Source: Rhodothermales bacterium (GTDB lineage Bacteria > Bacteroidota > Rhodothermia > Rhodothermales > BA12). Taken from it: 64,000 nt of DNA. Numbering within the stretch: the first letter of the stretch is position 1; each line of letters begins with the position of its first letter. Shown one piece after another: positions 6,543-57,861 of this stretch. Both the position numbers and the translations under genes were made by a program. The stretch lies in the NCBI GenBank assembly GCA_963829705.1, contig CAWHJN010000003.1:381828-445827 (forward strand), in the 5' to 3' direction. The notes beneath the pieces were generated by a model. It worked only from the letters and a program-made list of their open reading frames with translations. It searched no databases and was not told the origin of the DNA.

Positions 6543-9500
6543 ATGCAGACTCTCCCGCGCCACGCTCTACTGGACCGGACGCCTTCGTTGTGCGCGCTCC
6601 TGGTGTTCACGCTCGCCGGATTGACAACCGCCGCACCGGCTTCCGCACAGCGGCTCGATGCGAGCGATGGGCGGTTCCTGCACCGGATCGAACTCGCGTG
6701 GCCGGACTTCGCGCCAGGCGACGCCTACGTGGTTACGCGTGACGGCCATGCGCTTGGATCCGTAGCGAGCGGCACGACGCGCTTCGCCGACTCCGCCCCT
6801 GTCGCCGGGGTGATACACACCTACTGCGTGACGGCAGATGTGCCGGCCCCTGCGCCCCAGCTGTGTGACGACGGTAGCCTGGGCACCGTCACCGCAACGG
6901 ACGGCCTGCTCGAAGACCGCGTCGAGATTCGGTGGCCGGGACCGGATTCTGAGGAGACTATTTTCCGCGTCTACCGCGCCTCTGAGGGGCAGGCGGTGGA
7001 TCGGGCGACGGATCTGATCGGACTGGGGGCGAGCAACGAAACCCTGTTCACCGACCGCGCCGGCGATCCCGGCGTTCTGTACACGTACTGCGTCACGGCC
7101 AGCCTCAACGGCGACCTCGTCTGCGATACGGGACGTCGCATCCTGTTCGCGCCGACGGGCTTCCGCGCCTCGGACGCCACCTACGAAAACCGCATCGCCC
7201 TCACCTGGGCCGACCGCTCCGGCATCGAGGACGGCTACCGGCTCGCGCGTGCGGCGCAGGGCGTGCTCGCCTTCGACGGCGCGAGCGACCACCTGACGAC
7301 GCAGGTAGCCGTCGATCTCTCCGGCTCGTTCACGTTCACTTTCCGCGTGCGCCGCACCCGCACCGGCGCGGAAACCGTGCTGAGTCAGGGCGGCGGCCCC
7401 GCCAGCGGACTCACGATCGGCTTCGACGCCAGCGACCGGGTGCGCGTCGGCTTCGGCGCGAACATGTTGCTCTCCGCCACCCCTCTGACCGACACCGACT
7501 GGCATCATATCGCCGTCACCCACGACGCGGCCACGGGAGACCGCGCCCTGTACGTCGACGGCGTGCTGGCGGGCAGCGACGTCGCCGGAGGTCCCTACAC
7601 CGGACTGGGACCCCTCGTCTTCGGGACACGAGCCTGGGATGCTGGAGAATCTTTCGGCGGTGAACTCGACGAGGTGCGGCAGTGGAAGCGGGCGCTACCG
7701 GCCTCCGAGGCGATCCCCAACACGCTCCTCTCCGGCCAAGAAACCGGGCTGGTCAGCTACTGGCCGTTCGACACAGGCACCGGCACGACAGCCCTGGACG
7801 TCACGGGCGGCAACGACGCAGTCTTCGAGGGCGGCATGGACACCTCGGCGTGGCAGGCGGCACCGGCCTTCGACCTCATCGCGCTGCTCCCCGCCAACGC
7901 CTCCACCTTCCAGGACCAGACGACCGTCGCGGGCCTCCCGTACACGTACCGCGTCGAAGCCTTCGAGTACGCCGCGGGCAGCAGCACCGACTACTTCGTG
8001 TCCGTCGGCGCGACGGTGGCAGGCACGCGGGGCTTCGTGCTCCCCCCGCGCCTCTTCGCCGCCACCGACGGGCAGTACCCGGACCGCGTCGTGCTGACGT
8101 GGATCGACCAGACAGACGCCGAGACAGGCTACCGCATCACGCGCGACGGCGTAGTGATCCTCCCCGACGCGCAGACGGAAACCTTCGCGCGAAACACCAC
8201 CGTCCGGTTCGAGGACACCGGCGCTACGCCCGGCGTGGCGCACACCTACTGCGCCACCACGCTGTCGCTGCTGGGCGACTCGCCCGCGGTCTGCGATACC
8301 GGCGGCATCGGCATTCTCCCGGCTCCGACCACCGTTGCCGCGTCGGACGACACGTTCGACGACCTCGTAGAGATTACCTGGGTGGACGACTCGACGACCG
8401 AAGACGGTTTCCGGGTCTACCGCGACGGCACGCTCGTCACCACCACGACGGCCAACGCCACCTCGTACCGCGACCGCACCGGCTTCGCCGGCGTGCCCTA
8501 CACCTACTGCGTCGCCGCGTTGAGCACCGTCAGCGGGGGCGAGATCGAATCGGCGCAGGTGTGCGACACCGGCCGCCGCATTCCCGTGCTGGCCCCGACA
8601 AACGTGATCGCCAGCGACGGCGCGCACGAAGACCACGTCGAAATCGCCTGGGGCAACCCGTCGCAGGTAGGCACGCTGTTCGTGGTCGAGCGCAGCACCG
8701 GCGGCGGCGCGGCTTCGCCCATCAAGAGCCTGCCCGCCAACCAGCGCCTCTACTTCGACGCCGAGATCGCCTCGGAGACGGTCTACACCTACTGCGTCCT
8801 CACGATGGCCGTGATCGCGGCACCGAGCGCGAGCAGCGCGCCGAACCGGGCGTCGGACGCGGCCCTCGAAGCCTTTCCCGCTGACGAGGCGCTGCTCGCC
8901 GAGATGCGCGCGGCCGTGCTGGAGAGCCCACCTCCCGCCTTCCAGGCGCTTTCGGAGGACGAGCGCGCCCTGCGCGTGAGCGCCCTGACGATGGCCGATT
9001 TCGCACAGTCAGACCGCACCTGCGACACCGGCTTCCGCACCCTGCTCCCTCCCACCGACGTCGCGGCGACGTTCGAGGACAAAGAGGATTACGTCGAGAT
9101 CACGTGGGAGATCGCCTCCAGCGTGGCAGACGGGCACAACGTCTACCGCGACGGCGTGCTGGTGGGCCAGGTGGATGGCGACCGCACCGCACTCCGCGAT
9201 ACCGCCGGAACGCCGGGCCAGACGTTCACCTACACCGTCCGGGCCTTCGATGACAAGGGCGAGTCGGCACCGAGCGCGGGCAAGACGGGCAAGCGCACCC
9301 TTCTCGCTCCCATCGACCTCGCGGCGAGCGACGGTGCGTTCGAGGACCGAGTGACGCTGACGTGGACGGACGAATCGCGCGTGGAGCGCGGCTACCGCGT
9401 CTACCGCGAACACGCCGACGGTACGGGCCGCGTGCTGCTGGGCACGGCGCCCGCGCGCGCACAGACGTACATCGACTCGACGGCCTCGCTGGTGTCCGGC

Positions 9501-12500
9501 ACCGTCTACACCTACCGCGTCGCCGCCTTCGATGGTGCGGGCGAATCCGCCGCCGCCACCGACGCGGGCAGCACCGCCCTGCTCCAGGCGCTCTCCGTCA
9601 GCGCCTCGACGACCTACTTCGACCGCATCACGGTGACCTGGGTGGATGTGTCGGCCACCGAGAGCGGCTACGAAGTGACGCGGCGACGGCGGAGCGCGTC
9701 TACCATCGACAAGACGGAGACGCTGGCGGCAGGCAGCACCCAATTCATCGACACCGACGCCGCGCTCCTGCTCGATGCCGACTACGTGTACTGCGTGCGG
9801 AGCTTCACCACCGACGGGGGTGCGAGGGCCTACGGAGCCAACGTGTGCAGCACGGGCCGCCGCGACAGCAGCGCCGAGCCCATCGGCGAAGTGACCAACC
9901 CGCCACAGGTCGTCACCGTCGCCGGTACCCGCTTCCTGGGCGAAGCCGTCGCCGCGAGCGGGGCGGACGACATTCTGGCGACCGGAGGCGGCAATGCCGC
10001 CCGGTTCTTCAGCAAAAACAACGTGGGTACCTGGACGCTGGCACAGGCCGTGCTGCCCACCGACTTCCTCAGCGGAGTCGGGCTGGCGAGTGTAGGCGTC
10101 GGCATCGAGGGCGACTGTGCAGCGGTGGGCGCGCCGACCTACGAGGACGGCGCGGTGGCGTTCTACCGCCGCACCAACGGCACGTGGGTGTATCGTGATT
10201 TCGCCGAACCGGGTGATGGGGCCTTCGAGCGTGAAGCGTCGTGGGGCGCTGCCGTGGCGCTCGGAGGCGGGCGTGGCATCATGGGCGCACCCGACTACAA
10301 CGACAACGACAACGACCGGGGGCGCGCGGGCGCCGCGCAGTTCGGCCTCCGCAACGCGGATTGCAGCTTCAGCGGACCCGTATGGGATGCGAGAGACGAC
10401 GTCCTGGAACTCACCGAAAACGACTTCTTCGGGACTGCCGTGGACCTCGACGCCACCTATGCCGTCGTCGGCGCGCCGAGTGCGCGCAACGGGCTGGGCG
10501 ATGCCTACATCTTCAACGGCAACACGCTGGAGGCGAAGGACATGCTGCCGTTCAACTTCACCGGCACGACAGGCTCCTTCGGCCGGGCGGTGGGCCTCCA
10601 GGGCGGCTACGCGGCCATCGGCGCCTCCAACGCCGTCTTCCTCTTCCGCCGCAACGACGACGGCACGTGGGTGCAGGTGGCGCGGCTCGTGCCGCCGGTG
10701 CTCACTGCTGGGGACGACTTCGGCGCGTCGCTGGCATTCGTAGACAACCACCTCATCATCGGTGCGCCCGGCTACAACAACGGGGAAGGCGCGGCCTACG
10801 TGTGGCAGCGCGACACCGACCTCGACGCGTGGTTTTACAGCCACCTCCTCACCGTGGACGGCGCGGGCATCGCGGTGCAGGGCAACGCGGGCGACCGCTT
10901 CGGCGCATCCGTCGCCATCGCCGAGGGCTGGTTCGTCGTGGGCGCGCCCAACGACGACGACGCGGGAGCCGACGCCGGGGCTCTCTTCACCTTCCCGTTC
11001 ACCTTTATCCCGCCACCACCGCCGTCGTCTATCGTCCCGCCGGGCACCCTGACGGCGTCCGACGGGCTGGCGCAGGATGCCATCCAGCTCCGGTGGAACG
11101 ACACCTCGACCGACGAGACGGGCTTCAACATCTACCGCAGCGACCAGGGCGGCTCCATCGCCACGGTCGAGCCCAACCAGGAGGCATACCGCGACTTCAC
11201 CGCCGTGCCCGGCCGGGCGTACCGCTACTGCATCGAGGTGCAGACGCCGGGGGGCGTCTCGGAGCAGGTGTGCGACGTGGGGCGACGGCCCAGCAACGGC
11301 ACCATCAGCGGGCGCATCGTTGCGCGCAGCGGGTCGGGCGTGGGCGGCTCCGAGGTGTGCATCGCCCCCAGCCCCAACGACGCGCTCTTGCTCGACGGCG
11401 TCGGCGGGTTCGTGGAGATCCCCAACCGCCCCGCGTTCAACTTCGACACCGCGGACGATTTCACCATCGAGGTGTGGCTCAAGTACAGCGGCACCGCGGG
11501 CCCCTCCGGACCTGCACAGGCCAGCATCCTGGAGATGGGCGACAACCGCGGGACGGCCATCCCCTTCGCGCTCCGCACGGGTCTCCGCTCTGATCCTGGT
11601 AAACTGGTGCTGCTGCGCGAGGGCGGCGGGATCATCCGCAGCGTCGGCTCGACGCGCAACGACCTCAACGACAACACGTGGCACCACGTCGCCGTCGTCC
11701 ACGACGGCGCGGCGAAGTCTTTCACGATGTACATCGACGGCGCCCAGGATGCCACAGCGACCTACACGACGCTCGGCAGTACGAAAAATGCGTATCCGCT
11801 GTACTTCGGGCGGCGCGGCAACCTGGCCACCAGCTGGTACGGTGGACAGATGGACGAGGTACGCATCTGGAACGAGGCCCGCACCGCCGCCGACATCCAG
11901 GCCACGATGCGCATGCCCCTGGCCGGATCGGAAGACGGACTCGTCGGCTACTGGCCGCTCGAACTGCGTAGCGGCGACCTCATCGTGGACCTGACCCCGA
12001 ACGCGAGCTACGGCACGCGCAAGGGCGGCGCGTTCTCCAGCGCCGACGGCGCGCCCCTCGACACCTGCGCCCCCACCGACGAAGAGGGCAACTACACCCT
12101 CAACCGGATCAGCTACGGGGTTTCCACCGACTTTCAGGTGACGCCCATGCAGCAAGACCGGGCGTTCGAGCCGGTCTTCAAGAGCATCACGCTGAGCACG
12201 GAAAACGCCGTGCAGAACGAGGTCATCTTCACCGACATCACCGCCGTCACACTCGCGGGCACGGTCGTCTACCCGTCGCCCTTCGACGCCTCGACGTGCC
12301 CTGTGCCGGACGTGGCGCTCTACGTCGGCAAGCCCGGCGAGGAGCGGCTGCCGCGCACGTCGACCGAGCAGGACGGGGCCTTCAGCCTCAACCTCGACCT
12401 GGGGCAGTACGTCGCCGAGCCCCGCTACGGCGAGGGGGCCGCGGAGCACACGTTCAGCCCCGCGTCGGCAACGGTCAACCTGTCCGGCGACGTGACGCTC

Positions 12501-15500
12501 GCGCCGTTCGAGGACCGCACGGTGCGGACGCTCAGTGGCTTCTTCGGCGGGAGTTGCGACACGCAGGTAGGCACCGCGGCGCTCCGCATCTTCACCGAGG
12601 ACGGCTGCTTCGACCACGAGGTGCCGCTCGCTGGAGCCTTTACCGTCGATCTGCCCGCGCAGCAATACCTCCTCCAGGTCAAGAAGGTGAATCCGACGAA
12701 CGACGACCTGCGCGTGGACATCCTGAACTTTTTCGAAGACTACGGCACCCGCGCCGTCGACCTACGCACCGACGACCAGTCCATCGACTTCATCTACCGC
12801 GCGCCGTTGCAGGTCGCCATCGAGGGCCTGGCGGGCGATCTGTGCCCGGCCAACGTCATCACCGAAGTAGACGAGGACGGCACGCCGCTGCGTACGCTCC
12901 CGAAGGTGCCTCTCATCCCTCCCGACGCCGTCCGCCCACTCACCATCCGGGTGACGGAAGACTACGGCGTGGCCGGCACGTGCCCGGTGGATACGGGCTC
13001 GGTAACCATCTACGACGGCCTCGCCGACCGGGCCGAGGAGCCCGTCACGCTCGCCATCACAGGCGGCACTGTGTCCTACGAGACGCGGGCCGGACAGCCC
13101 GACTTCTCCACGGGCCGCGTGATCGACGGCGTGGACCGGTCGTACCAGAAGTCCCTTACCGTCATCGCCCGGGTGGAGGGGCGGACGCCCACGACCGAAA
13201 CGCAATGGGCCGTCGTGGAAGGCCTGAAAGCACGGCAGAGCACGTTCGTCTCGGCGACGACGGAGGAATTCCCCGTCCTCATCCTGCGCGATCCGCCGGG
13301 CAGCAACTCGTACAGCTACCTCGAAGGCGGCACGACGCATTGCCAGAGCTGGTCGAACACGCAACTCAGGGGGGGTGGAGCAGGGGCCGACATCGACCTG
13401 CGGCTGGGCTTCATCACCAACACGGGCGTGGGCTTCGGCGTCTTTACGATCCTCGCAGCCGGTGCGGGCGTCTCCTTCAAAACCCGGATCGTCGGCGGCC
13501 AGGATGTGACGCGCCTCCGGCCGGGCGAGCGGAATCTCGAAATCTGCGCCACCACCACGGAGCGCTGGTCTACCCCGAGCGACCCGACGTGGGTGGGCGA
13601 AGACCTGTTCGCGGGCATCGCGCTCAACCTCATCTTCGCCCTGGCCGACGAGATCTCGTCGGATGCACAATCGTGCAGCATCCAGGCGAAGGAAGTGCTC
13701 GCGATGGACCTGGACGAAACGGAGCCGTTCGAGACGACCTACGTCTTCGGCAAGAGCCATATCACCTATTCGCTGATCCCGGCCTTGGAGCAGCTCATTG
13801 CGTTGAGCGGTGCGGAGGCGTCGTTCGGCGATACGGACGCCGTGACGCTCGGCCACGCGCGGGACAACTGGAAGGGCCATCTCGCCCTGAACGACTCGCT
13901 GGTGGCGGAAGCCCTCCAGAATCCGGTGCAGAACCGTTCGTTCAGCGCGGGTGCCGACTACGAGTACAGCATGACGGCAGACACCACGACCGTCACGAAC
14001 GCCACGACCACGCGCGTCTACCTCGACTCCCAGGGCGGGATCGGGGTGCTCCAGAACATCTTCGGCTTCGATTCCTGGAACGGCCTCGTGTACGAGGCGC
14101 GGTCGGAGCGGGTCACGGAAGAGAAGGCCTCGGAGGACACGACGAACGTGATGGGCTACGTGCTCTCCGACGGCGACACAGGCGACTTCTTCAGCGTGGA
14201 CATCGGGACGGATCCGCTCTACAGCACGCCCGTCTTCCGCACCGTCAGCGGGCGCAGCTCGAACCCGTGGGAAAGCGGCACGCAGCAGCGCGACAAGCCG
14301 CGCGTCGAGATCAACCCGCCGCAGATCTTCGGGGCCGATCCCGACGCGGGGGCTTCCTTTGCCCTGACCATCACCAACGACAGCGAGAGCGCCGAACGAC
14401 GCGAGTACAAAATCCGCGTGCCCGGCGAAGTCAACGCCAAGAACCTGGGCGTGACGATCACAGGCGACCTGCTGGGCGGCGACCGCCTGGAAACCGTCGT
14501 CCTCAATGCCGGGGCGTCGGTCACGCTGAACATGGACGTCTACCCCGCCCCGTCGGCGTTTACCTACGAAGACGTCGGCATCATGGTGTATCCCGACAAC
14601 GAGTTCGAAATCTGGCGGGCCGATCCACGGCAGCCTTTCGCGCTGTCGGACACGGCGTTTTTCAGCGTGTCATTCACCGCGCCGTGCAGCGAAATCAACG
14701 TGCGCGAACCTGGAGATCACTGGACGCTCAACGCGGCTACTTTCCCCGGCGGCCTGCTGGTGAGCCTCGACGAGTTCGGACTCGACGTGTCGCCCGACGA
14801 GCGCGTCGACCGGCTGGGCCTCGAATACCGCCGCGCCGGCACCGACGATCCGTGGGCAGAGGCCTTCTCGGTGGGAGCCGATGACCTCCCCACCGAGGAC
14901 GCCACGTTCTACACGCAAACGTGGGACGTGGCACGGGCCGGGCTGACGGGCGGGGCGTACGAGCTGCGCGGCTACACCGAATGCCCGGTGGGCGGCAGGG
15001 TCTACTCCCCGGCGATCTCGGGCGTCGTGGATACCGTCGCGCCCGTCGTCTTCCGAGCCGACCCCGCCGACGAAGTGCTCAGCCTCGGCGACGACATCGC
15101 GCTGACGTTCAACGAGCCCATCGACTGCCCCGCCGTGCTCGGCAAGGTCGGCTCGACGCCGACGAACCAGACCGTCTTCCTCTACCACGACGACGGCCCC
15201 GCCGCCGGAACGGAGATCGCCTCGCAGGCCCTCTGCAACGGCTCGACGGTGCTCGTCCAACTCGCCGACGTGACGAAGTGGCCGAGCCTCGAAGGCCGCC
15301 GCCTGCGCGCCGAGGTTCGCAGTCTTACCGACGCAGCAGGCAACCCGATGATGGCGACGGAGAACCTGCCCGACGGCACACCCCACGCGTGGACGTTCAC
15401 GGTGCAGCGCTCTGCCGTGGCGTGGACGCCCTCGAACGCCGAGGCCAACGTGCCACCCGCGCAGGCGGCGGCGCTCACGGCGACACTCGCCAACGGGCGC

Positions 15501-17396
15501 GCCCAGGCCATCGACTTCACGCTCGAGGGCCCGTTCAAGCTGGCGAAGCTGGATGCGGGTGGCGTCTCGACCGGCGATTCGGTCGCCGTCACGCCGTCGC
15601 TCGTCGAGGGGCGGATCGTCCCCGGCGGGCAACAGCGCATCGACTTCGGCTGGCCCGGTGCCGCCGATCTCGGCACCTACCGCGCTACGCTCGCCACGGC
15701 CACGAAGGAAGGCACACGCGAGCTGGGCACCGTCCCGCTCGACCTGACGGTCAACGTCACGTGTGCCCCGCCGCTGTGGACGCTCCGGCCCGAGACGTTC
15801 GAGTTCAACATGACGGCGATGGCGCGCCTGATGATCGACGGCGTGGCCTCGCAGGACGAGAACGACCGCGTAGCCGCCTTCGTCGATGGCCACCTGCGCG
15901 GCCTCGGTAGCGTGACCGCCTTCCCGGGCGCGGGAGGCACCTCGGACTACCTCGCGCCGCTGCTGATCTACAGCAACCAGGAGGCCGGCGAGGCCGTCAC
16001 GATCCAGGTCTGGGACGACTCCGCCTGCCGGCTCTACACCGAGACGAGCGCCGCCTTCGTCTTCGTCGCCGACGCCGAGCGCGGCACGCCTGCGCGTCCG
16101 TTCACGGTCTTCGCCCCCGACAACGGCAGTGGCCCCGGACAGGTCAACCTGCTGGCGGGCTGGACGTGGATCTCGACCAACCGCACGCCTGCCGACACGA
16201 GCTTGAATGCGGTGCTCGACGGGCTGTTTGTCTCCAACGGCGACCTCGTCAAGAACCAGACCTCCTTTGCCCTCTACGACGAGAATGCCGGGTGGGTGGG
16301 TTCGCTGGAGGGGATCGTGCCCGGCCCGGCGTACCTGACACGGCTCACAGCGAGCAACACGCTCGTGCTCGCGGGCACGCCCGTCGACGTGGCCGCCACG
16401 CCGATCCGGCTCAACGCGGGCTGGACGTGGGTGGGCTACCTGCCGCAGACGGCCTATCCGCTGGACTACGCGCTGCAAAACGTGACGACGCAGACGGACG
16501 ACCTCATCAAAGGGCAGTTCGGCTTCGCGCAGTACCTCGACGGCACCGGCTGGATCGGCTCGCTCGCGGAGTTGCGCCCGGATGCGGGGTACATGATGAA
16601 GATGCAGGCCCCGACGACGTTCACGTATCCGAGCGTGGACCCGCCTGCGAGCGCGAGCGCTACGGCCCGCGCGTCGGTGCCAGCAGGAGACGCCGTGACG
16701 GCAGAGACCTCTGGCAGCGAAAGCGCAGCCCAGCAAGCCGATGTGCCCGACTGGACCGTTGACGCGGCGCAGTACGAGCACTCGATGTCGATCACGGCCA
16801 CCCTCTCGGTCGACGGCGTGCCCGTGATCACGCCGGGGTCGATGGCGGCGGCCTTCGTGCCCGGCGAACAAGGCGGAGCCGAGGTGCGCGGCGTGGGTTC
16901 GGTGCAGTACGTGGCTGCGCTCGACGAGTGGCTCGTCTTCCTGACGGCCTACAGCAACGCTGCCGAGGGCGAGGCGCTTTCGTTCAAACTCTACGACGCC
17001 GCCAGCGATGCCACTCGTGAAGCGGCCCTGGCGCTCTCGTTCGTGGCCAACGGCGTGGTGGGTACGCTCACCAACCCCATCGTCTTCGACCCCTCGCGCG
17101 CGACAGCGGTGGAAGCGGGCATGGGCATCCCGGCGGACTACGTGATCCTGCCCAACCTGCCCAATCCGTTCGCCTCCTCGACGGTGCTCCGCTACGGCTT
17201 GCCCGAGGCCACGCGCGTGCGGCTCGTCGTCTACGACGTGCTCGGGCGCGAAGTGCGCCGCGTGGTGGATCGGGAGCAGGCTCCGGGTTACCACCGGGTG
17301 GGCCTCGAGGCGGAAGATCTGGCCAGCGGCGTCTACTTCGTGCGGCTCGAAGCGGGCGGGCGCACCGAGACGCAGCGCGTGGTGGTGCTCAAATGA
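6543..17396 (+). CDS. Giant (3617 aa) secreted multidomain surface protein, adhesin-like, with a T9SS C-terminal sorting domain
   Basis: N-terminal signal peptide (MQTLPRHALLDRTPSLCALLVFTLAGLTTAAPASAQ). About 12 FN3-like repeats, each ending in a YTYCV....CDTGRR motif. A LamG lectin-like insertion at 7261..7860. An FG-GAP beta-propeller (FG.(A/S)V.....GAP repeats). A second LamG domain. A carboxypeptidase-regulatory-like stretch. A large unassigned conserved core. A T9SS CTD at the C-terminus. The frame is intact. Confidence 0.9.
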   Translation: MQTLPRHALLDRTPSLCALLVFTLAGLTTAAPASAQRLDASDGRFLHRIELAWPDFAPGDAYVVTRDGHALGSVASGTTRFADSAPVAGVIHTYCVTADVPAPAPQLCDDGSLGTVTATDGLLEDRVEIRWPGPDSEETIFRVYRASEGQAVDRATDLIGLGASNETLFTDRAGDPGVLYTYCVTASLNGDLVCDTGRRILFAPTGFRASDATYENRIALTWADRSGIEDGYRLARAAQGVLAFDGASDHLTTQVAVDLSGSFTFTFRVRRTRTGAETVLSQGGGPASGLTIGFDASDRVRVGFGANMLLSATPLTDTDWHHIAVTHDAATGDRALYVDGVLAGSDVAGGPYTGLGPLVFGTRAWDAGESFGGELDEVRQWKRALPASEAIPNTLLSGQETGLVSYWPFDTGTGTTALDVTGGNDAVFEGGMDTSAWQAAPAFDLIALLPANASTFQDQTTVAGLPYTYRVEAFEYAAGSSTDYFVSVGATVAGTRGFVLPPRLFAATDGQYPDRVVLTWIDQTDAETGYRITRDGVVILPDAQTETFARNTTVRFEDTGATPGVAHTYCATTLSLLGDSPAVCDTGGIGILPAPTTVAASDDTFDDLVEITWVDDSTTEDGFRVYRDGTLVTTTTANATSYRDRTGFAGVPYTYCVAALSTVSGGEIESAQVCDTGRRIPVLAPTNVIASDGAHEDHVEIAWGNPSQVGTLFVVERSTGGGAASPIKSLPANQRLYFDAEIASETVYTYCVLTMAVIAAPSASSAPNRASDAALEAFPADEALLAEMRAAVLESPPPAFQALSEDERALRVSALTMADFAQSDRTCDTGFRTLLPPTDVAATFEDKEDYVEITWEIASSVADGHNVYRDGVLVGQVDGDRTALRDTAGTPGQTFTYTVRAFDDKGESAPSAGKTGKRTLLAPIDLAASDGAFEDRVTLTWTDESRVERGYRVYREHADGTGRVLLGTAPARAQTYIDSTASLVSGTVYTYRVAAFDGAGESAAATDAGSTALLQALSVSASTTYFDRITVTWVDVSATESGYEVTRRRRSASTIDKTETLAAGSTQFIDTDAALLLDADYVYCVRSFTTDGGARAYGANVCSTGRRDSSAEPIGEVTNPPQVVTVAGTRFLGEAVAASGADDILATGGGNAARFFSKNNVGTWTLAQAVLPTDFLSGVGLASVGVGIEGDCAAVGAPTYEDGAVAFYRRTNGTWVYRDFAEPGDGAFEREASWGAAVALGGGRGIMGAPDYNDNDNDRGRAGAAQFGLRNADCSFSGPVWDARDDVLELTENDFFGTAVDLDATYAVVGAPSARNGLGDAYIFNGNTLEAKDMLPFNFTGTTGSFGRAVGLQGGYAAIGASNAVFLFRRNDDGTWVQVARLVPPVLTAGDDFGASLAFVDNHLIIGAPGYNNGEGAAYVWQRDTDLDAWFYSHLLTVDGAGIAVQGNAGDRFGASVAIAEGWFVVGAPNDDDAGADAGALFTFPFTFIPPPPPSSIVPPGTLTASDGLAQDAIQLRWNDTSTDETGFNIYRSDQGGSIATVEPNQEAYRDFTAVPGRAYRYCIEVQTPGGVSEQVCDVGRRPSNGTISGRIVARSGSGVGGSEVCIAPSPNDALLLDGVGGFVEIPNRPAFNFDTADDFTIEVWLKYSGTAGPSGPAQASILEMGDNRGTAIPFALRTGLRSDPGKLVLLREGGGIIRSVGSTRNDLNDNTWHHVAVVHDGAAKSFTMYIDGAQDATATYTTLGSTKNAYPLYFGRRGNLATSWYGGQMDEVRIWNEARTAADIQATMRMPLAGSEDGLVGYWPLELRSGDLIVDLTPNASYGTRKGGAFSSADGAPLDTCAPTDEEGNYTLNRISYGVSTDFQVTPMQQDRAFEPVFKSITLSTENAVQNEVIFTDITAVTLAGTVVYPSPFDASTCPVPDVALYVGKPGEERLPRTSTEQDGAFSLNLDLGQYVAEPRYGEGAAEHTFSPASATVNLSGDVTLAPFEDRTVRTLSGFFGGSCDTQVGTAALRIFTEDGCFDHEVPLAGAFTVDLPAQQYLLQVKKVNPTNDDLRVDILNFFEDYGTRAVDLRTDDQSIDFIYRAPLQVAIEGLAGDLCPANVITEVDEDGTPLRTLPKVPLIPPDAVRPLTIRVTEDYGVAGTCPVDTGSVTIYDGLADRAEEPVTLAITGGTVSYETRAGQPDFSTGRVIDGVDRSYQKSLTVIARVEGRTPTTETQWAVVEGLKARQSTFVSATTEEFPVLILRDPPGSNSYSYLEGGTTHCQSWSNTQLRGGGAGADIDLRLGFITNTGVGFGVFTILAAGAGVSFKTRIVGGQDVTRLRPGERNLEICATTTERWSTPSDPTWVGEDLFAGIALNLIFALADEISSDAQSCSIQAKEVLAMDLDETEPFETTYVFGKSHITYSLIPALEQLIALSGAEASFGDTDAVTLGHARDNWKGHLALNDSLVAEALQNPVQNRSFSAGADYEYSMTADTTTVTNATTTRVYLDSQGGIGVLQNIFGFDSWNGLVYEARSERVTEEKASEDTTNVMGYVLSDGDTGDFFSVDIGTDPLYSTPVFRTVSGRSSNPWESGTQQRDKPRVEINPPQIFGADPDAGASFALTITNDSESAERREYKIRVPGEVNAKNLGVTITGDLLGGDRLETVVLNAGASVTLNMDVYPAPSAFTYEDVGIMVYPDNEFEIWRADPRQPFALSDTAFFSVSFTAPCSEINVREPGDHWTLNAATFPGGLLVSLDEFGLDVSPDERVDRLGLEYRRAGTDDPWAEAFSVGADDLPTEDATFYTQTWDVARAGLTGGAYELRGYTECPVGGRVYSPAISGVVDTVAPVVFRADPADEVLSLGDDIALTFNEPIDCPAVLGKVGSTPTNQTVFLYHDDGPAAGTEIASQALCNGSTVLVQLADVTKWPSLEGRRLRAEVRSLTDAAGNPMMATENLPDGTPHAWTFTVQRSAVAWTPSNAEANVPPAQAAALTATLANGRAQAIDFTLEGPFKLAKLDAGGVSTGDSVAVTPSLVEGRIVPGGQQRIDFGWPGAADLGTYRATLATATKEGTRELGTVPLDLTVNVTCAPPLWTLRPETFEFNMTAMARLMIDGVASQDENDRVAAFVDGHLRGLGSVTAFPGAGGTSDYLAPLLIYSNQEAGEAVTIQVWDDSACRLYTETSAAFVFVADAERGTPARPFTVFAPDNGSGPGQVNLLAGWTWISTNRTPADTSLNAVLDGLFVSNGDLVKNQTSFALYDENAGWVGSLEGIVPGPAYLTRLTASNTLVLAGTPVDVAATPIRLNAGWTWVGYLPQTAYPLDYALQNVTTQTDDLIKGQFGFAQYLDGTGWIGSLAELRPDAGYMMKMQAPTTFTYPSVDPPASASATARASVPAGDAVTAETSGSESAAQQADVPDWTVDAAQYEHSMSITATLSVDGVPVITPGSMAAAFVPGEQGGAEVRGVGSVQYVAALDEWLVFLTAYSNAAEGEALSFKLYDAASDATREAALALSFVANGVVGTLTNPIVFDPSRATAVEAGMGIPADYVILPNLPNPFASSTVLRYGLPEATRVRLVVYDVLGREVRRVVDREQAPGYHRVGLEAEDLASGVYFVRLEAGGRTETQRVVVLK
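6651..9870 (+). repeat. Array of about 12 FN3-like about 95-aa repeats inside the giant gene. The array is interrupted by a LamG domain at about 7261..7860.
   Basis: The motif RxxLxWxD....GYxVxRDG....YTYCVxA.....CDTGRR recurs about every 285 nt. Confidence 0.7.
9930..10995 (+). repeat. FG-GAP (integrin-alpha-type) beta-propeller repeats inside the giant gene
   Basis: At least 5 repeats of the type FG.AV.L...YAVVGAP....G.AYIF (FGTAVDLDATYAVVGAP, FGRAVGLQGGYAAIGAS, FGASLAFVDNHLIIGAP, FGASVAIAEGWFVVGAP). Confidence 0.65.
11380..11990 (+). other. Second LamG / concanavalin-A-like lectin domain of the giant gene
   Basis: ..WHHVAVVHDGAAKSFTMYIDG.....YFGRRGN....YGGQMDEVRIWN.ARTAADIQA......GLVGYWPLE matches the Laminin_G_3 pattern. 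This is the same domain seen at the very start of the window in copy 1. Confidence 0.6.
17119..17396 (+). other. T9SS C-terminal sorting domain of the giant gene
   Basis: IPADYVILPNLPNPFASSTVLRYGLPEATRVRLVVYDVLGREV....ASGVYFVRLEAGGRTETQRVVVLK. Confidence 0.75.
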
Positions 17397-19743: not shown

Positions 19744-21558
19744 ATGGAACTCACCCCGCAGATGTACTGGGTGGTCGGGCTCGTCGTCGGCGCTGTGCTG
19801 CTCGTCGGGTTCGTCATCTCGCTCTTCAACAAGTTTCTCGTCAAGGCCGCGCCGGGGCAGGCGCTCGTCAAAACGGGCTTCGGGGCCGACGCGCCGCGCG
19901 TGTACCTGTCGAGCGCCTTCGTGGTGCCGCTTTTCAACCGTGTGGACACCATCGACCTGACGGTCAAAACCGTCCGCATCGTGCGGCGCAAGTACGAGAG
20001 CCTTTCGTGCGCCGACGGCATCCGGGCGGAGGTCGAGGTGGATTTCTACATCAAGATCAACTCCATCGGCGAAGACATCGGCCACGTCGCCACGACGATT
20101 GGCTGCGGCCGCGCGAGCGACACCGAGATCCTGCGCGAGCTGTTCGAGGCCAAGTTCGCCGACGCGCTCAAGACCGCCGGGGCCAAGCTCACCTTCGACC
20201 AGCTCTACCAGAACCGCCGCCTTTTCCGCGACGAGATCCTGAAAGCGCTGGGGCAGGAAGGCGAAGGGGAGGTCGTCCTCAACGGCTACAAGCTCGACGA
20301 TGTCGCCATCCAGTTTCTCGAACAGCTTCCGCTCGAGCAGCACAACGAGGACAACGTGCTCGACTCGCGGGGCCGCAAGGAGATCGCGCAGCGCACGTCG
20401 AGCGAGGTCGAGGCCGCCAACCAGCGGTTGCGGCAGAAAGAGGTGACGATTGCCGAGCAGAACCGCGAGGCGCGGCTGCGGCAGCTTCAGATCGAGCAGG
20501 ACATCAAGGAGAAAGAGGCGGCGCAGAAGCGCGAGATCCACGAGGCCGAGGCGCGCGAGGACGCCGCCACGCAGCGCACCGTGGCCGAGCAGGAGCGCAT
20601 GGCCGAGGAAGCGCGCATCCTCCGCGACAAGCAGGTGACGGTGGCGAACGAACTGAAGCAGCAGGAGGTGATGGCCGCCGAGATCGAGCGGCAGCGCGCC
20701 ATCGAACTGGCCGACGAGCAGAAGCGGCAGCAGGTGGAGCAGGCGCAGATCGCCCGCGAGCGCGCCATCAAGGTGGCCGAGCAGCAGAAGATTCAGGAGG
20801 TCGAGATCGCCCGCATCCAGCGCGAAGCCGCCGAGGCCGAGGCGCTGCGCGAGAAGCTGAAAATGCTCGAAGAAACGGCCCTCCAGGAAGCCGAGAAAAT
20901 CCGCGCCGAGGAAAAGGCGCAGACCGTGCGCGCGCTCGAAATCGCGCAGCGGCAGAAGTCCATCGAGGTCATCGAGGCCGAAAAGCGCGCGCAGGTGGAA
21001 AAAGCCATGCAGCAGGTCGAGGCCGACGTGTCGGCGTACGAGATCCGCAACCTGGCGCAGGCCCGGCTCGACGCCGCCGCGCTGGACTCGGAGGCTGCCG
21101 AGAAGCAAGCCCTCGCCATCGAGGTCGTCGGGCGGGCAGAGGCCGAGCGCGAGCGCCTGCGCCTCGACGCACAGAACGTCATCGGCGAACGGGCGCTGCT
21201 GGCGCAGACGCTTCAGCAACTCATCCCGCTGCTGCCGCAGCTCACAGCGGAACTGATGAAGCCCGCCGAGCACATCGATAGCATCAAGATCCTCAACGTG
21301 ACGGGCATGGGTGGGCAAGGCGACGGCGCGCCGCAGCCGCACCCGGTGGCGTCGGGCGTGCTGGGCACGATCTTGCAGACGGGCATGGCGTTGCCGGTGC
21401 TCAAGGAACTGCTGGGCGCGCTCCAGGGCCGCGACGGCGTGACGGACGTGGCGCACGCGCTGCGTAGCCTCCCCGGCGGCCCCGTGCTCGCCGACGCGCT
21501 GCAGCAAGGGCGCACCGCCACGCCCATCGGCGACGGAGCCGCGCCACCCGTCGCGTGA
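19744..21558 (+). CDS. Flotillin-family SPFH/band-7 protein (YqiK-like) with a long EA-rich coiled coil
   Basis: N-terminal transmembrane helix, SPFH domain (..LVKTGFGADAPRVYLSSAFVVPLFNRVDTIDL..), then about 250 aa of E/A/Q/R-rich coiled coil. Confidence 0.85.
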   Translation: MELTPQMYWVVGLVVGAVLLVGFVISLFNKFLVKAAPGQALVKTGFGADAPRVYLSSAFVVPLFNRVDTIDLTVKTVRIVRRKYESLSCADGIRAEVEVDFYIKINSIGEDIGHVATTIGCGRASDTEILRELFEAKFADALKTAGAKLTFDQLYQNRRLFRDEILKALGQEGEGEVVLNGYKLDDVAIQFLEQLPLEQHNEDNVLDSRGRKEIAQRTSSEVEAANQRLRQKEVTIAEQNREARLRQLQIEQDIKEKEAAQKREIHEAEAREDAATQRTVAEQERMAEEARILRDKQVTVANELKQQEVMAAEIERQRAIELADEQKRQQVEQAQIARERAIKVAEQQKIQEVEIARIQREAAEAEALREKLKMLEETALQEAEKIRAEEKAQTVRALEIAQRQKSIEVIEAEKRAQVEKAMQQVEADVSAYEIRNLAQARLDAAALDSEAAEKQALAIEVVGRAEAERERLRLDAQNVIGERALLAQTLQQLIPLLPQLTAELMKPAEHIDSIKILNVTGMGGQGDGAPQPHPVASGVLGTILQTGMALPVLKELLGALQGRDGVTDVAHALRSLPGGPVLADALQQGRTATPIGDGAAPPVA

Positions 21559-21590
21559 TCTCTTCGTTTGCCCCTCCCTCGACCCCGAGT

Positions 21591-22229
21591 ATGCCTTTCC
21601 GACTGCTTTCCCTCCTCGTGCTGCTGGCTGCCTGCGAGGCTCCGACACCGCCCGCTGTACCGGCTCCGCCCACGCCGTTACCCACCGAAACGACTGCGAT
21701 TTCCACCGACGACCGCGCCCTCGCCACAAAACCCGTCGCGCCGCTGCGGGTCGAGGGCGCGTGCCCGTTCGAGGGCTGCACGTACACGTCGTGGACGACG
21801 AGCGGCGAGACGGCGGTGTACGCGGTCGCGGGCGACACGTCGAGCACCGCGTTTATGCTTCCTGCGGGCACGCACATGGAGGCAGATCGCGGCTTCGTGC
21901 TGCTGACGCGCATCGGCGTGTACGTTGCCGACCGGCCCACCGAGGTATTCGTCACGGCGGACGAGACACACGCCGTGGCGGCGGGCGACACGCTGCTCGT
22001 GCTCGATTACGAGGGCGAAGGCAGCTACCGCGTCTGGCACGGCGGTGTGCTGGCGTTCTCGGGCGCAGGCGCCGACCTCCCCGTCCCCGGCCAAGGCACG
22101 CCCGCGCTGCGCCAGACCGTCGAACCCGCACAGCAGTGGTGGGCGCACGTCCACCTGGCCGACGGACGCGACGGCTGGCTGTGGATGGACGAGACGCCGC
22201 CTGTGGAGGGCGCCGATGCGTTTGGTTGA
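21591..22229 (+). CDS. Hypothetical lipoprotein
   Basis: Signal peptide with a lipobox (LLVLLAAC), start taken at MPFRLLSL. No recognised catalytic motif. Confidence 0.5.
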   Translation: MPFRLLSLLVLLAACEAPTPPAVPAPPTPLPTETTAISTDDRALATKPVAPLRVEGACPFEGCTYTSWTTSGETAVYAVAGDTSSTAFMLPAGTHMEADRGFVLLTRIGVYVADRPTEVFVTADETHAVAAGDTLLVLDYEGEGSYRVWHGGVLAFSGAGADLPVPGQGTPALRQTVEPAQQWWAHVHLADGRDGWLWMDETPPVEGADAFG

Positions 22230-23037: not shown

Positions 23038-23307
23038 ATGACTTTAGGACGTGTCTCGGGCACCGTGTGGGCCACGCGCAAAGACGCGCAACTCGTCGGG
23101 ATGACGCTGCAGATCGTCGAGAACGTCGGGCTCGACGGCACGCCGACGGGTGGCTTCGTCGTGGCCGTCGACAGCGTGGGCGCGGGCGTCGGTGAACTCG
23201 TGCTCGTCGTGCAGGGCTCGAGCGCCCGGCTGACGGAGCAGACCAAAACGAAGCCCGTCGACGCCGTCATCGTCGCTATCGTGGACAACCTCGAAGTTAC
23301 AGGCTGA
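23038..23307 (+). CDS. EutN/CcmL/PduN-family bacterial microcompartment vertex (BMC-P) protein
   Basis: MTLGRVSGTVWATRKDAQLVGMTLQIVE...AVDSVGAGVGELVLVVQGSSAR...KPVDAVIVAIVDNLEV is nearly collinear with E. coli EutN (AIDNIGAGTGEWVLLVSGSSAR...PVDLCVIGIVDEVV). Confidence 0.8.
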   Translation: MTLGRVSGTVWATRKDAQLVGMTLQIVENVGLDGTPTGGFVVAVDSVGAGVGELVLVVQGSSARLTEQTKTKPVDAVIVAIVDNLEVTG

Positions 23308-23570
23308 TGCTGCTGGGAAAGGTCATCGGATGCGTGTGGGCCACGCGCAAACACGAGGCGCTCGCCGGGCAGCGGCTCTTGCTCGTGCAGGCCCTCGACG
23401 CCGATGGAAGTCCGCAGGGCACACCCTTCGCGGCGCTCGACACGATGGACGGCGGGCCGGGTGATACGGTCGTCTACGCCACGTCTGCCGAGGCAGGCAT
23501 TCCCTTCCGTCCACGCCTCGTACCCACGGACGCGACGGTGGTGGGCATCGTGGAAAAGGTGGATGGATGA
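23307..23570 (+). CDS. Second EutN/CcmL-family BMC-P paralog. Its start overlaps the upstream stop by 1 nt.
   Basis: MLLGKVIGCVWATRKHEALAGQRLLLVQALD....GDTVVYATSAEAG.....TDATVVGIVEKVD. Same fold family as the upstream gene. Confidence 0.75.
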   Translation: MLLGKVIGCVWATRKHEALAGQRLLLVQALDADGSPQGTPFAALDTMDGGPGDTVVYATSAEAGIPFRPRLVPTDATVVGIVEKVDG

Positions 23571-23746: not shown

Positions 23747-23793
23747 CAAAAACAAACCGGCCCCCGCGCCAGAGCACGAGAGCCGGTCTTTTT
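23747..23793. terminator. Bidirectional stem-loop terminator (A-run, stem ACCGGCC..GGCCGGT, T-run)
   Basis: aaaaacaaaccggcccccgcgccagagcacgagagccggtcttttt lies between two convergent genes. Confidence 0.6.
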
Positions 23794-23814: not shown

Positions 23815-24873
23815 TCAGGTGACGGCAGCTTTGGCTTTGTGGTAGCCGTGGCGGACGGCGTCCTTCACGTCGTCCCACGCACTGTCGTTGTCCTTGCCGT
23901 ACCGGCTGTCGTAGTCGGTGCGAAGGTCGCGCTCGACATCGGTGTAGTCGCGGTCGCGGTACGTGTTACCTGCCGCGTAGCCATATTCGTAGGCCGGGCG
24001 GTAGTAATCGTAATCGCGTCCGGCGGTGGCATAGGCCGTGTCGTAGTGCTGGCGGAAGCCGGTTTCCATGCCGCGCAGTTCGGCCGTGTCGAGTTTTTCG
24101 ACCTCGATGCGCGTGCGGCGCACGTCGCCACCGACGGTTTCCTGGTGCGTCTCGACGTTTTTGCCAACAGTGACTTCGCCTGTCACGCGCGTCTCTTTCT
24201 CGACGATGGCTTCCTCGGCGCGTTCGACGAGTTCGATGGTCTTCTCCTCGAAGGCATCGTCCACCTCGCCCGGAGCCACCACGCGGTCCACACGCCTGCG
24301 GTCCACGTCTACGTGCTCCTCACGCAGTTGCAGCGTCTCCTCGACGCGCTCGGTATCCACATACTTGTGGACGCGCACGCCGCCGCGGACGACTTCGCGC
24401 TTGCCGATCTTGAGGTTTTCCTCGATCTCCTGCAACCGCTGCTGCCGCTGGTCGGCGAAGCGCTCGCGCTCCTCGAGGCGTTGTTTGTCGGTGTAGGCAT
24501 CTGCCGAGTGGTCGTAGTCGGTGAAGCCTTCCTGCTTGTAGGCGTTCATACGGTCTTCGTAGCGCACCGGGTTGCCGCGCGCCATGATGTCTACCGCCTT
24601 GTCGGCGTCGTTGTCGTGCGCCCTCGTGATGACGAGCGTGCCGCCGCGGCGGACGGCCTCGGCGTAAAAGTGTGATTCGTTGTCGTCTACCTCGAAGCGC
24701 GAGAGCGTGTCGAGGAGCGAGTTGGGGTCGTCCATCTCGTAGCCGGTGCGGTTGGCGGTGTCGTGCGTGGCCACCTGGAGGTGGGCGTCGCCGAAGCCGG
24801 CGTCTTCGAGGTTTTTCACCACCGCTCGTGCAGTGCTGAGGTCGTCATAAAGTCCTACGATGGTCTTTGCCAT
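23815..24873 (-). CDS. General stress protein with YflT-like N-terminal and YsnF/DUF2382 C-terminal domains
   Basis: N-terminus MAKTIVGLYDDLSTARAVVKNLEDAGF.. plus repeated charged blocks and a DUF2382-type C-terminal half. Tyr/Asp/Arg-rich tail. Confidence 0.65.
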   Translation of the reverse strand: MAKTIVGLYDDLSTARAVVKNLEDAGFGDAHLQVATHDTANRTGYEMDDPNSLLDTLSRFEVDDNESHFYAEAVRRGGTLVITRAHDNDADKAVDIMARGNPVRYEDRMNAYKQEGFTDYDHSADAYTDKQRLEERERFADQRQQRLQEIEENLKIGKREVVRGGVRVHKYVDTERVEETLQLREEHVDVDRRRVDRVVAPGEVDDAFEEKTIELVERAEEAIVEKETRVTGEVTVGKNVETHQETVGGDVRRTRIEVEKLDTAELRGMETGFRQHYDTAYATAGRDYDYYRPAYEYGYAAGNTYRDRDYTDVERDLRTDYDSRYGKDNDSAWDDVKDAVRHGYHKAKAAVT

Positions 24874-24928
24874 GGTACTGGTTTGTTTTTGTTGGGTTTA
24901 ACGAATAGAGTTGGACAGGGGGCTGTCC

Positions 24929-25486
24929 TTACGGGGTGGGCGGAAGCGGCGTGCGCTCGACTTCCACGTGCGTCCGGCGCAGCGTGACTTCTTGCGGATC
25001 GCGCGTTTCTTCGCGCCGCCGGACGATGCGGACCTCCTCCCGTAACAGGAGGCGCTTTTCGACGACGAGCACTTCTTCGTACACCGGGACGACGATCGTA
25101 TCGCCTTCGTGGCGCACCGGAAGGCGCTCGTCCACGTACGTGCCGATGGGCACGCGGTCGATCTCGATGGTGTCGCGCGAGAGCGGCTCGTCTACAATCT
25201 GGGTTTCTTCCTCGACACGCGTGCTCACGCGCACCCGGGCGGTGTCGCGGGTTTCGGTACGTACACGGAGATGCTCCTCGGCCTCGGTGAGCATGGCTCG
25301 CCGTAGTTCGTCGAACGAGAGGTCGGCTCGGTAGCATTCGCCGTCCTCCCGGACGAGGGCAGTAGGCACGTCAATGCGCGTCCCGTCGTCGAGGCGCAGC
25401 GCGTGGGAGGCTGTCTGCGCCGGAGGGTCCTGGGAAAATGCGGCACGCTGGCCGTCGCGGTCGATGACAGGGCGGGAGGTGTTCAC
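24929..25486 (-). CDS. DUF2382 (YsnF/AvaK) domain stress protein
   Basis: Paralogous to the C-terminal half of the downstream gene (..VRVRTETRDT..VEEE..VVEKR..REEVRI..). Confidence 0.55.
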   Translation of the reverse strand: MNTSRPVIDRDGQRAAFSQDPPAQTASHALRLDDGTRIDVPTALVREDGECYRADLSFDELRRAMLTEAEEHLRVRTETRDTARVRVSTRVEEETQIVDEPLSRDTIEIDRVPIGTYVDERLPVRHEGDTIVVPVYEEVLVVEKRLLLREEVRIVRRREETRDPQEVTLRRTHVEVERTPLPPTP

Positions 25487-26046
25487 GCGCGTGTCTGGCC
25501 ATAGGTGTACCCGTATTCGACAGCGGCGCGATCATCGTCGTACGTGCGATCGGGGTAGCGCGTGGCGTAGTCACGCTGCAAGTCCGTCTGCGCGTCGGCG
25601 TAGGAGCGGTCGCGGAAGGTTTCGTGCTGGCCGCGTTCGTAGCCGTAGGTATAGGCGGGCGCGTAGCGGTCGTAGTCATCGCCGCCGTAAGTGGTGGCGT
25701 AATGCTCACGGAAGGCGTCGGCGTAGGCGTCGGAGTCGAGTTCGCCGACATGCTCACGCCGGACGACGTGGCCGTGCTCGAACACCGTCACGGACGCGCC
25801 CGCTTCCTCGTCGGCGGGTGCCGTGAGGTAGACGACGCCGTCGCCAATGGACAGGTCACGGGCAGGATACTCGGTCCCATCCTCGAGCGTGACGGCGTCC
25901 ACACGCTCTTCGTCGGTGTCCACGATCATGTCAGAGACGCGCCCCACCTCGTTGCCGTCGGCGTCGAGGGCTGTGAAGCCACGCACGTCTTGCTCGTCGA
26001 ACTTAAGTTGCCAATCGTCGGTGGTGCTGAGGGGAATGCGGGACAT
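25483..26046 (-). CDS. PRC-barrel domain protein with a Tyr/Asp-rich tail
   Basis: PRC-barrel-like N-terminal segment (DVRGFTALDADGNEVGRVSDMIVDTDEERVDAVTLEDG). Its stop overlaps the start of the next gene. Start at MSRIPLS. Confidence 0.55.
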   Translation of the reverse strand: MSRIPLSTTDDWQLKFDEQDVRGFTALDADGNEVGRVSDMIVDTDEERVDAVTLEDGTEYPARDLSIGDGVVYLTAPADEEAGASVTVFEHGHVVRREHVGELDSDAYADAFREHYATTYGGDDYDRYAPAYTYGYERGQHETFRDRSYADAQTDLQRDYATRYPDRTYDDDRAAVEYGYTYGQTRA

Positions 26047-26258
26047 GGGGGAATCTGGGATGGGTGAACAGAAATGGAAGCACCAGGCGAGCGGTGCGGG
26101 TAGGATTCCGGTGCGTGGTACCCAATGTCCGACCGGCGACCCAAAGGGGTTGATCCGACCGAATCTGACCGATCCGGCAAGAATGGCGAACAGAACCACA
26201 GCGTAACACAACCTTCTGTCTTGCAACGGCTTAACGGTCCAACCATCCCCCCGCACCG

Positions 26259-38942: not shown

Positions 38943-41552
<2,610 letters not shown>

Positions 41553-41680: not shown

Positions 41681-42238
41681 TCAGCCAACCTCCCTCGCCA
41701 GCCACGCCCGCGCCAGCCGCCAGTCGCGGCGGACGGTGGGCACGGACACGCCCAGCACGCCCGCGATTTCCTCGTGCGTGAGGCCGCCAAAAAAGTGGTA
41801 CGTCACGACGCGGCTCTGCCGCTCGTTGAGGAGCGCCAGCTTTTCGAGGGCTTCGTCGAGGGCGATGAGCGCCTCGGGCGGCGTCTCGTCCGGGTGGATC
41901 TCGTCGACGAACGTCACCGGGTGCTGCCCACCGCCGCGCTTGGCGGCGTTGCGTTTGTGCGCGTAGTTGATAAGGATGCGCCGCATGGCCACCGACGCCA
42001 GCGCATAGAAATGCGCCCGGTTCTGCCAGCTGTTCTCCTGCTGGACGAGCTTCAGATACGCCTCGTGGACGAGCGCCGAGGTATCGAGCGTGTGGCCGGA
42101 GCGCTCGCGCCTGAGCTGCTGCCGTGCGATGCCCCGGAGCGCGTCGTAGATCTGCGGCAGGAGCTGGTCGGCGGCGTCGCGGTTGCCGTCGGCGAGGCGA
42201 CCGAGGAGGACGGTGATGTCGTCGGAGTCGTCGGGCAT
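41681..42238 (-). CDS. ECF-type sigma-70 factor, directly upstream of the Ser/Thr kinase
   Basis: Sigma2 and sigma4 regions (..ALVHEAYLKL... and ..LTHEEIAGVLGVSVPTVRRDW). Start at MPDDSDD. Confidence 0.8.
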   Translation of the reverse strand: MPDDSDDITVLLGRLADGNRDAADQLLPQIYDALRGIARQQLRRERSGHTLDTSALVHEAYLKLVQQENSWQNRAHFYALASVAMRRILINYAHKRNAAKRGGGQHPVTFVDEIHPDETPPEALIALDEALEKLALLNERQSRVVTYHFFGGLTHEEIAGVLGVSVPTVRRDWRLARAWLAREVG

Positions 42239-42408
42239 GGCGCGTCGTGGCCGGTGGAGAGAGCCCGGAAGTACGACAGGGGCGCGACGCAAAGATAACA
42301 GGATGGCGCAAACCTGCCCGTTCTGACAAAAAAACGACGGCCCCGTTATCACTTTCGTCCGGCAGTGCGGCGTGAAGGAGTAGAGACCTCACCCAACCGC
42401 CCGCTGCC

Positions 42409-56197: not shown

Positions 56198-56273
56198 GGC
56201 AGAGAGAAAAAGAGAGGGCCGCCCGCCCGCGCTCAAGGCGGCGAGCGGGCGGCACAGGTCTACCGCGTCACGC

Positions 56274-56507: not shown

Positions 56508-56589
56508 CTCAAAAGGGAGTGGTTAGGAGAGGTTGAGCGAGTAAAAATGCCCGAAATGGGCGGTGGTACGAGGGAAAATCTTGAGGCCG

Positions 56590-57828: not shown

Positions 57829-57861
57829 AGCGTCCGTTGAAACAGGAGAGGGCAAAAAAAA

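Follow-up and report, generated by a model that had tools for sequence, protein, structure and literature searches.

A coupled pair of BMC-P vertex-protein genes in a Rhodothermales genome, probably a FRAG1-type satellite of a fragmented microcompartment

The gene pair and its surroundings

The window, by which is meant the whole 64-kb stretch of DNA analysed here, carries two adjoining genes for microcompartment vertex proteins of the EutN/CcmL family (BMC-P). The first gene, P1 (23038–23307, + strand), starts with ATG and encodes a protein of 89 aa, or of 100 aa if translation begins at an in-frame GTG at position 23005. The second gene, its paralogue P2 (23307–23570, + strand), likewise starts with ATG and encodes 87 aa, and both products match PF03319. 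At the junction the sequence reads TGATG (23305–23309, +), the stop codon of P1 (TGA, 23305–23307) and the start codon of P2 (ATG, 23307–23309) having one base in common. The coordinates and lengths of the reading frames in an earlier note on this DNA, as well as its description of the pair as translationally coupled, are thereby confirmed. P1/P2 overlaps of 1 or 4 nt recur in 28 of 66 related pairs. A scan for promoters of the sigma-70 type, which does not extend to Bacteroidota-type promoters, gave no match upstream of P1. Between P2 and the convergent DUF2382 genes downstream lies a terminator-like, GC-rich hairpin of 16 pairs with a T-run (23754–23789, − strand); a TTTT is also present 3' of the stem on the + strand, and the hairpin is likely the end of transcription units arriving from both sides.

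The assignment of both proteins to the EutN/CcmL family, proposed in the same note, agrees with whole-domain matches to PF03319 (EutN_CcmL) of 102.4 bits (E 2e-29) for P1 and 82.3 bits (E 3.6e-23) for P2, both exceeding the curated cut-off of 25 bits. The best scores against the NCBIfam equivalogs were 80.9 for CcmL (cut-off 125), 61.5 for EutN (cut-off 118) and 40.8 for CsoS4 (cut-off 120). Because all of these fall well below the cut-offs, P1 and P2 are BMC-P proteins yet neither carboxysome nor Eut pentamers. P1 has retained the canonical motif of the family (AVDSVGAGVGE...GSSAR...PVDAVIVAIVD), whereas that of P2 has diverged (ALDTMDGGPGD...SAEAG...PTDATVVGIVE) with loss of the canonical GSSAR. 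An AlphaFold2 model of P2 has a mean pLDDT of 83.7, with loop 63–67 as the only stretch of low confidence; compared with solved BMC-P structures (GrpN 4I7A, EutN, CcmL and the HO shell pentamer 5V74) it reaches TM scores of 0.75–0.85, and the top Foldseek matches are all BMC-P pentamers. P2 is thus predicted to adopt the five-stranded β-barrel fold of BMC-P, and the same fold is assigned to P1 by its similarity to 5V74 (E 9e-25). This structure, a pentamer of the intact Haliangium ochraceum shell, is the best solved relative of P2 as well (E 1.3e-13).

Within the family, P1 is 57–63% identical to the BMC-P that adjoins the shell hexamer gene (BMC-H) in complete HO/SPU-like loci, and by this resemblance it is classed as the 'main-locus/green-clade' type of BMC-P. 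P2 shares 40% identity with the first of two neighbouring accessory BMC-P genes in complete loci (L065 protein) and is classed accordingly as the accessory type 'P3a', which would place it in the grey or orange clade of the BMC-P triplet. The third BMC-P type, P3b, carries the distinctive motif EGNxARQLLGT..DPFHSVI and has no counterpart in the 64-kb window nor in any of the 64 pair-bearing loci described below. In comparison with the closest relative, from which synonymous sites have diverged to saturation, dN/dS amounts to 0.055 (P1) and 0.14 (P2). Given these low ratios, both genes are under purifying selection and therefore functional.

The neighbours of the pair are, by Pfam scan, a His_Phos_1 protein, two DUF2382 proteins and a PRC-barrel protein, in agreement with the histidine-phosphatase lipoprotein and the PRC-barrel/DUF2382 cluster described in the earlier note. 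The His_Phos_1 protein is predicted to be exported, because it contains a signal peptide and a lipobox (LLAAC). It was rejected as a stand-in for the phosphopentomutase DeoB on account of this predicted export and of the DUF2382 block that separates it from P1 in the closest relative. The DUF2382/DUF2382/PRC-barrel genes are on the opposite strand and convergent with P2, with the terminator-like hairpin in between. In the closest relative, in which P1 is 92% identical (loci L086/L087), this block lies upstream of P1 (3525–5808 in L086), and an 11-nt overlap joins P2 to folP, after which come cdaA and pcm. In the window, the block (23815–26256) is instead found between P2 and folP, which indicates a recent local rearrangement around the pair and unties the stress genes from it. 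In another Rhodothermales-like genome the pair is flanked by an SDR gene and lepA, and the neighbours differ again in more than 60 other genomes. The connection to stress genes raised in the earlier note thus finds no support.

Other genes identified by Pfam in the window include flotillin, folP, cdaA, pcm, ATP synthase, PLP enzymes and a giant secreted protein; the GC content of 66.8% and the presence of T9SS sorting domains are consistent with Rhodothermales. A single ORF of 3617 aa (6543–17396, +) contains Laminin_G_3, fn3, FG-GAP and RGI-lyase-like domains and a T9SS C-terminal sorting domain, and the 1023-aa ORF before it (2735–5806) also ends in Por_Secre_tail. The flotillin gene is followed, with a 4-nt overlap, by an ORF of 224 aa (21555–22229, +) with a coding-like GC3 of 0.82 and a hydrophobic N-terminus, for which no Pfam match was found. 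Further downstream, a 555-aa homologue of the thiol-activated (cholesterol-dependent) cytolysins (42409–44076, +; PF01289 E 4e-75) adjoins a divergently oriented ECF sigma factor gene (41681–42352, −) and a gene for a Ser/Thr kinase that contains a long TPR array (38943–41552, −). The F1Fo ATP synthase genes are split, with atpD-atpC (44107–46319, +) about 6 kb away from atpG-atpA-atpH-atpF...atpB (52283–57855, −) and with NFACT-like, AsnC-type regulator, PLP-enzyme and beta-CASP genes in between.

Shell and enzyme genes in the window and in related genomes

No PF00936 shell hexamer was detected anywhere in the 64 kb. The window gave no tblastn match to approximate probe sequences of PduA, EutM, CcmK2 and CsoS1A. 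With proteins taken from complete loci, P1 and P2 were the only matches: BMC-H (HO-type), PduT-type BMC-T, CsoS1D-like, AldDh and PduS probes gave none in the window, and neither did DeoC aldolase, class II aldolase or deoB. Searching all six-frame segments of the window with an HMM of about 115 BMC-H sequences retrieved nothing at E<=10, and phmmer searches with 150 diverse PF00936 representatives returned only artefacts of chimeric representatives. Pfam scans of about 45 ORFs of the window revealed no aldehyde dehydrogenase, DeoC, PduS, PduL or Pta. These searches bear out the earlier statement that the 64 kb hold no shell hexamer and no signature enzyme.

The artefacts have a common source, as many of the long 'BMC-H' representatives at 50% identity are frameshift or read-through chimeras (P0257, P0266, P0290, P0298, P0302, P0320, P0339, P0344 and P0375), in which BMC-H is fused to out-of-frame Arg-rich tails, to a downstream BMC-P or to a histidine-kinase ATPase. 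Such representatives yield spurious PF00936-labelled matches to unrelated genes. The match at 63515–64000 was rejected for this reason, since the chimeric representative behind it includes a fused histidine-kinase ATPase. Likewise, candidates among the 50%-identity representatives for a FRAG1-specific, extended BMC-H of about 229 aa were discarded, since the long single-domain matches are frameshift or read-through chimeras. A BMC-H on a long contig (P0146) was dismissed as an isolated FRAG gene because it sits in a complete locus. In a database of 5.8 billion proteins, the best 120 matches to an HO/SPU-type BMC-H consensus were all at least 83% identical and came from other lineages, with none on the contigs of the loci examined. 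A profile of the third BMC-P type found only canonical-locus proteins in the same database, and L078 itself was its one match among the loci examined.

The closest homologues of P1 are annotated as Rhodothermales, Bacteroidota and Chloroherpetonaceae. A survey of homologues in which one genome per species was scanned yielded 80 loci, and in 64 of the fetched loci P1 is directly followed by a P2-type gene. These 64 loci belong to Rhodothermales, Ignavibacteria/Melioribacteraceae, Kryptonia-like Bacteroidota, Chloroherpetonaceae, Calditrichota, LCP-89 and Delongbacteria. PF00936, AldDh, DeoC and PduS/T are absent within 10 kb of the pair in all 64. Ten loci contain P1 without P2, seven of them from Gemmatimonadota. 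The Melioribacter loci in the survey carry the P1–P2 pair. Two loci of the same Ignavibacteria MAG, L038 (MNVA01000099.1) and L058 (MNVA01000193.1), each contain P1–P2 followed by sigma-70 and NlpC/P60 genes, a doubling explained either by duplication of the region or by the binning of two strains into one MAG.

Ten further loci are complete; they run BMC-H, P1-type, AldDh, PduS (present in four), PduT-type BMC-T, P3a and P3b, and in nine a DeoC aldolase flanks the BMC-H...P3b block on one of its two sides. They span less than 8 kb, and BMC-H is located immediately 5' of P1. P1 and P2 of the window correspond to P1 and P3a of these loci. Just upstream of complete HO/SPU-like loci, L084/L085 (7665–8705, −) contain a gene for an adenosine/AMP deaminase, another nucleoside-catabolism gene beside HO/SPU-like compartments.

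When ORFs within 6 kb of P1 were clustered across the 75 loci without BMC-H, 58 of these loci proved to have, directly before P1 and in the same orientation, a gene for a protein of about 390 aa. This protein is the phosphopentomutase DeoB, as it scores 460–534 bits against the NCBIfam equivalog NF003766 (cut-off 256) and also exceeds the cut-off of TIGR01696; it has no terminal extension. A co-oriented deoB gene is present less than 1 kb upstream of P1 in 37 of 38 Ignavibacteria loci, in all loci of Gemmatimonadota (7/7), Calditrichota (2/2) and Delongbacteria (1/1), and in 5 of 11 Rhodothermales loci, with two more in which it is farther away; among complete BMC loci the count is 0/10. The linkage in fragmented-type genomes thus spans at least five phyla. 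Examples are L004, L007, L012, L015, L016, L035, L042, L066–L083 and most Ignavibacteria loci, with deoB at about 8.2–10.0 kb in each locus. In about 19 Ignavibacteria/Melioribacteraceae loci (L018, L020, L022, L028, L031, L032, L034, L036 and others; about 9.6–10.0 kb), a co-oriented PIN-domain gene of about 129 aa separates deoB from P1. The remaining neighbours that are conserved in Ignavibacteria, S4-rpoA-L17-engB-GGDEF on the upstream side and sigma-70, NlpC/P60 and fumC on the downstream side, are a matter of lineage synteny.

A literature search found no paper linking phosphopentomutase to BMC-P genes. The description of the SPU type does name deoB as a step that feeds the SPU substrate (PMC11585597). 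SPU compartments, which contain DERA, presumably act on the product of deoB, (deoxy)ribose 5-phosphate. The position of deoB upstream of P1 in relatives hints at a sugar-phosphate (SPU-like) role. As the pair in the window has no adjoining deoB, this functional hint is borrowed from its relatives.

Interpretation and competing explanations

In the FRAG types of microcompartment, shell genes occur at up to six genomic places and nearby enzymes are mostly absent (Sutter et al. 2021, Nat Commun 12:3809, PMC8217296). FRAG1 comprises 57 loci of a 'shell protein only locus type', with Ignavibacteria as the most prominent group (PMC8217296, Supplementary Data 2), and occurs also in Kryptonia, Bacteroidetes, Chlorobi and Rhodothermaeota (PMC8217296). 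It is defined by a BMC-P triplet (green, grey and orange clades), two BMC-H in the same genomes and an optional PduS/T pair (PMC8217296). In the BMC-P tree of the same study, a 99-aa protein of the Rhodothermaeota member Rubricoccus SG-29 (BSZ36_14635) is labelled 'FRAG1 (sat)' and placed in the green clade viridian3 'mixed-spu' (PMC8217296). Our literature search on the FRAG types found nothing beyond this catalogue description.

P1 and P2 are probably two of the three BMC-P paralogues of a FRAG1-type fragmented microcompartment, with a role at the shell vertices. The pair is filed as a FRAG1-type satellite because its taxa, its shell-only context and its kinship to SPU/HO pentamers match the catalogue, the assignment being based on module identity, distribution and the published catalogue, with partner genes forming no part of that basis. 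The earlier note had offered satellite pentamers with a main locus elsewhere as one explanation. The match to FRAG1 favours the satellite half of this proposal. A main locus, by contrast, is probably absent from this lineage, all FRAG1 shell genes being dispersed.

Under the FRAG1 reading, P1 would be the counterpart of the vertex-capping pentamer of HO/SPU-like compartments, and P2 that of one of the accessory pentamers, two of which are invariably found with the P1-type. Both would be made together from one transcript by coupled translation. We infer that BMC-H and the third BMC-P are encoded elsewhere in the genome, the remaining shell genes being expected at other unlinked sites as a third BMC-P, a standard BMC-H and a BMC-H with a long C-terminal extension, sometimes with a PduS/PduT pair among them. 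The products of P1 and P2 would assemble into pentamers that close the vertices of an icosahedral shell made of hexamers. As for the enclosed chemistry, a deoxyribose/ribose-phosphate (SPU-like) metabolosome is the best guess, because deoB lies upstream of P1 in most relatives and P1 is close to the pentamers of DeoC-containing loci. Points that weaken the FRAG1 reading are the absence from the window of its defining partners, BMC-H and the third BMC-P, the missing deoB neighbour, and, in P2, the lost GSSAR motif and the poorly modelled loop 63–67.

Several other explanations compete with the FRAG1 assignment. The proposal that P1 and P2 are the edge genes of a conventional BMC operon just beyond the window draws on nothing except that BMC loci are, a priori, often clustered. 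The pair is flanked by unrelated genes on both sides and is 23 kb away from the left end of the window and 40 kb from the right one, complete loci are shorter than 8 kb and have BMC-H as the gene just before P1, and BMC-H occurs within 10 kb of the pair in 0/64 P1–P2 loci; by these distances the edge-gene reading is effectively refuted. A decaying, non-functional remnant of a lost BMC would account for the components missing from the window and for the loss here of the deoB linkage seen in relatives. Such decay is nevertheless very improbable, as both ORFs are intact and keep the family-conserved motifs, the start/stop overlap is preserved, dN/dS is low at saturated synonymous sites (0.055 and 0.14) and the module is retained across several phyla. 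That the pair belongs to one stress regulon with the DUF2382/PRC-barrel/YflT-like genes beside it, as this physical adjacency in the window would suggest, deserves equally little credence: the latter genes are convergent on the opposite strand behind a terminator-like hairpin, the closest relative has the block upstream of P1 and P2 overlapping folP, and the block is absent from all other pair loci.

A less remote, though still unlikely, alternative is that the pair works without a hexameric shell, for instance as a small oligomeric scaffold or a channel-like cap with cytosolic enzymes such as phosphopentomutase. It accords with the lack of BMC-H, both in the 23 kb and 40 kb of the window that flank the pair and in the 10 kb around it in 64 related loci, and with the housekeeping contexts in which the pair is found (folP-cdaA-pcm, lepA, rpoA-L17...sigma-70). 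In addition, neither encapsulation peptides nor enzymes were found for the FRAG types by Sutter et al., the FRAG genomes having yielded none of these peptides (PMC8217296). Against it, P1 is still 57–63% identical to the pentamers of complete shell loci and has kept all canonical motifs, and genomes of the FRAG1 type have, by its published definition, two BMC-H as well (PMC8217296). A role outside a BMC was the other explanation offered in the earlier note, and none of the present results speaks positively for it. In its full form, this alternative would have P1–P2 maintained by strong selection within housekeeping operons of Rhodothermales, in a genome without any hexameric shell protein, for a compartment-independent job that possibly concerns pentose phosphates via deoB; a milder version would take the deoB–P1 linkage across phyla as a sign that the substrate class of FRAG1/FRAG8 is nucleoside-derived sugar phosphates. 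We regard this proposal as a long shot. No BMC-P protein is known to work outside a shell, which also weighs against it. If a complete pair-bearing genome without BMC-H were found, the view that shell vertices are the sole form in which BMC-P proteins exist would be overturned.

FRAG-type microcompartments are widespread in bacteria of soil, sediment and hot springs, and cargo, substrate or an assembled particle has been shown for none of them. Assembled FRAG compartments are themselves still hypothetical, and the locus in the window alone leaves this picture unchanged. A usable lead is nonetheless provided by the green-clade pentamer gene directly 3' of phosphopentomutase in most fragmented-type genomes, from at least five phyla, which points to deoxyribose and ribose phosphates.

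Comparison with known microcompartment systems

Two adjoining BMC-P paralogues that always occur together are also known from α-carboxysomes as CsoS4A and CsoS4B. However, these are encoded within the carboxysome operon, beside shell hexamers and RuBisCO, and they are only distant kin of the present pair (E 5e-4 for P1 against 8WXB/CsoS4A; TIGR02703 far under its cut-off). The HO and SPU systems are closer. Of the solved structures, the HO shell pentamer comes closest to P1 (E 9e-25), P2 equals P3a of complete loci, and HO type I keeps two BMC-P in a satellite locus. The window differs from them in that P1 is paired with P3a instead of BMC-H, and in that P3b, the aldolase, AldDh and all PF00936 proteins are missing from the locus. 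The SPU locus furthermore includes a DeoC-family aldolase (DERA), an RpiB-family protein and AldDh, none of which is found in the window or in the pair loci. The function of the pair may resemble that of a component of an SPU-type BMC, though the locus is not an SPU locus.

Dispersed pentamer genes are a feature of further systems. [quoted passage not shown] 2014, PMC4207490). FRAG8 of Gemmatimonadetes and FRAG3 of Calditrichaeota and LCP-89 resemble the pair in having a P1-type gene apart from BMC-H, with deoB directly upstream (7/7 Gemmatimonadota and 2/2 Calditrichota loci). The Gemmatimonadota loci differ in containing P1 alone without P2, and for FRAG3 a DeoC aldolase is reported beside a BMC-P.

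The nearest match is FRAG1. Compared with its published definition, the window shows two of the three BMC-P types and has neither BMC-H nor the PduS/T pair, and the published description lacks the deoB neighbour that is seen in most relatives. The likeness extends to the satellite character of a shell-protein-only locus with no enzymes nearby (across the 64-kb window and 10 kb around the 64 orthologous loci), to the taxa from which the closest homologues and orthologous loci come (Rhodothermaeota, Ignavibacteria, Kryptonia, Bacteroidetes and Chlorobi), and to the combination of a green-clade 'viridian3 mixed-spu' BMC-P with a grey- or orange-type paralogue beside it. The configuration was thus already catalogued as FRAG1 in 2021, and the window adds another example from Rhodothermales.
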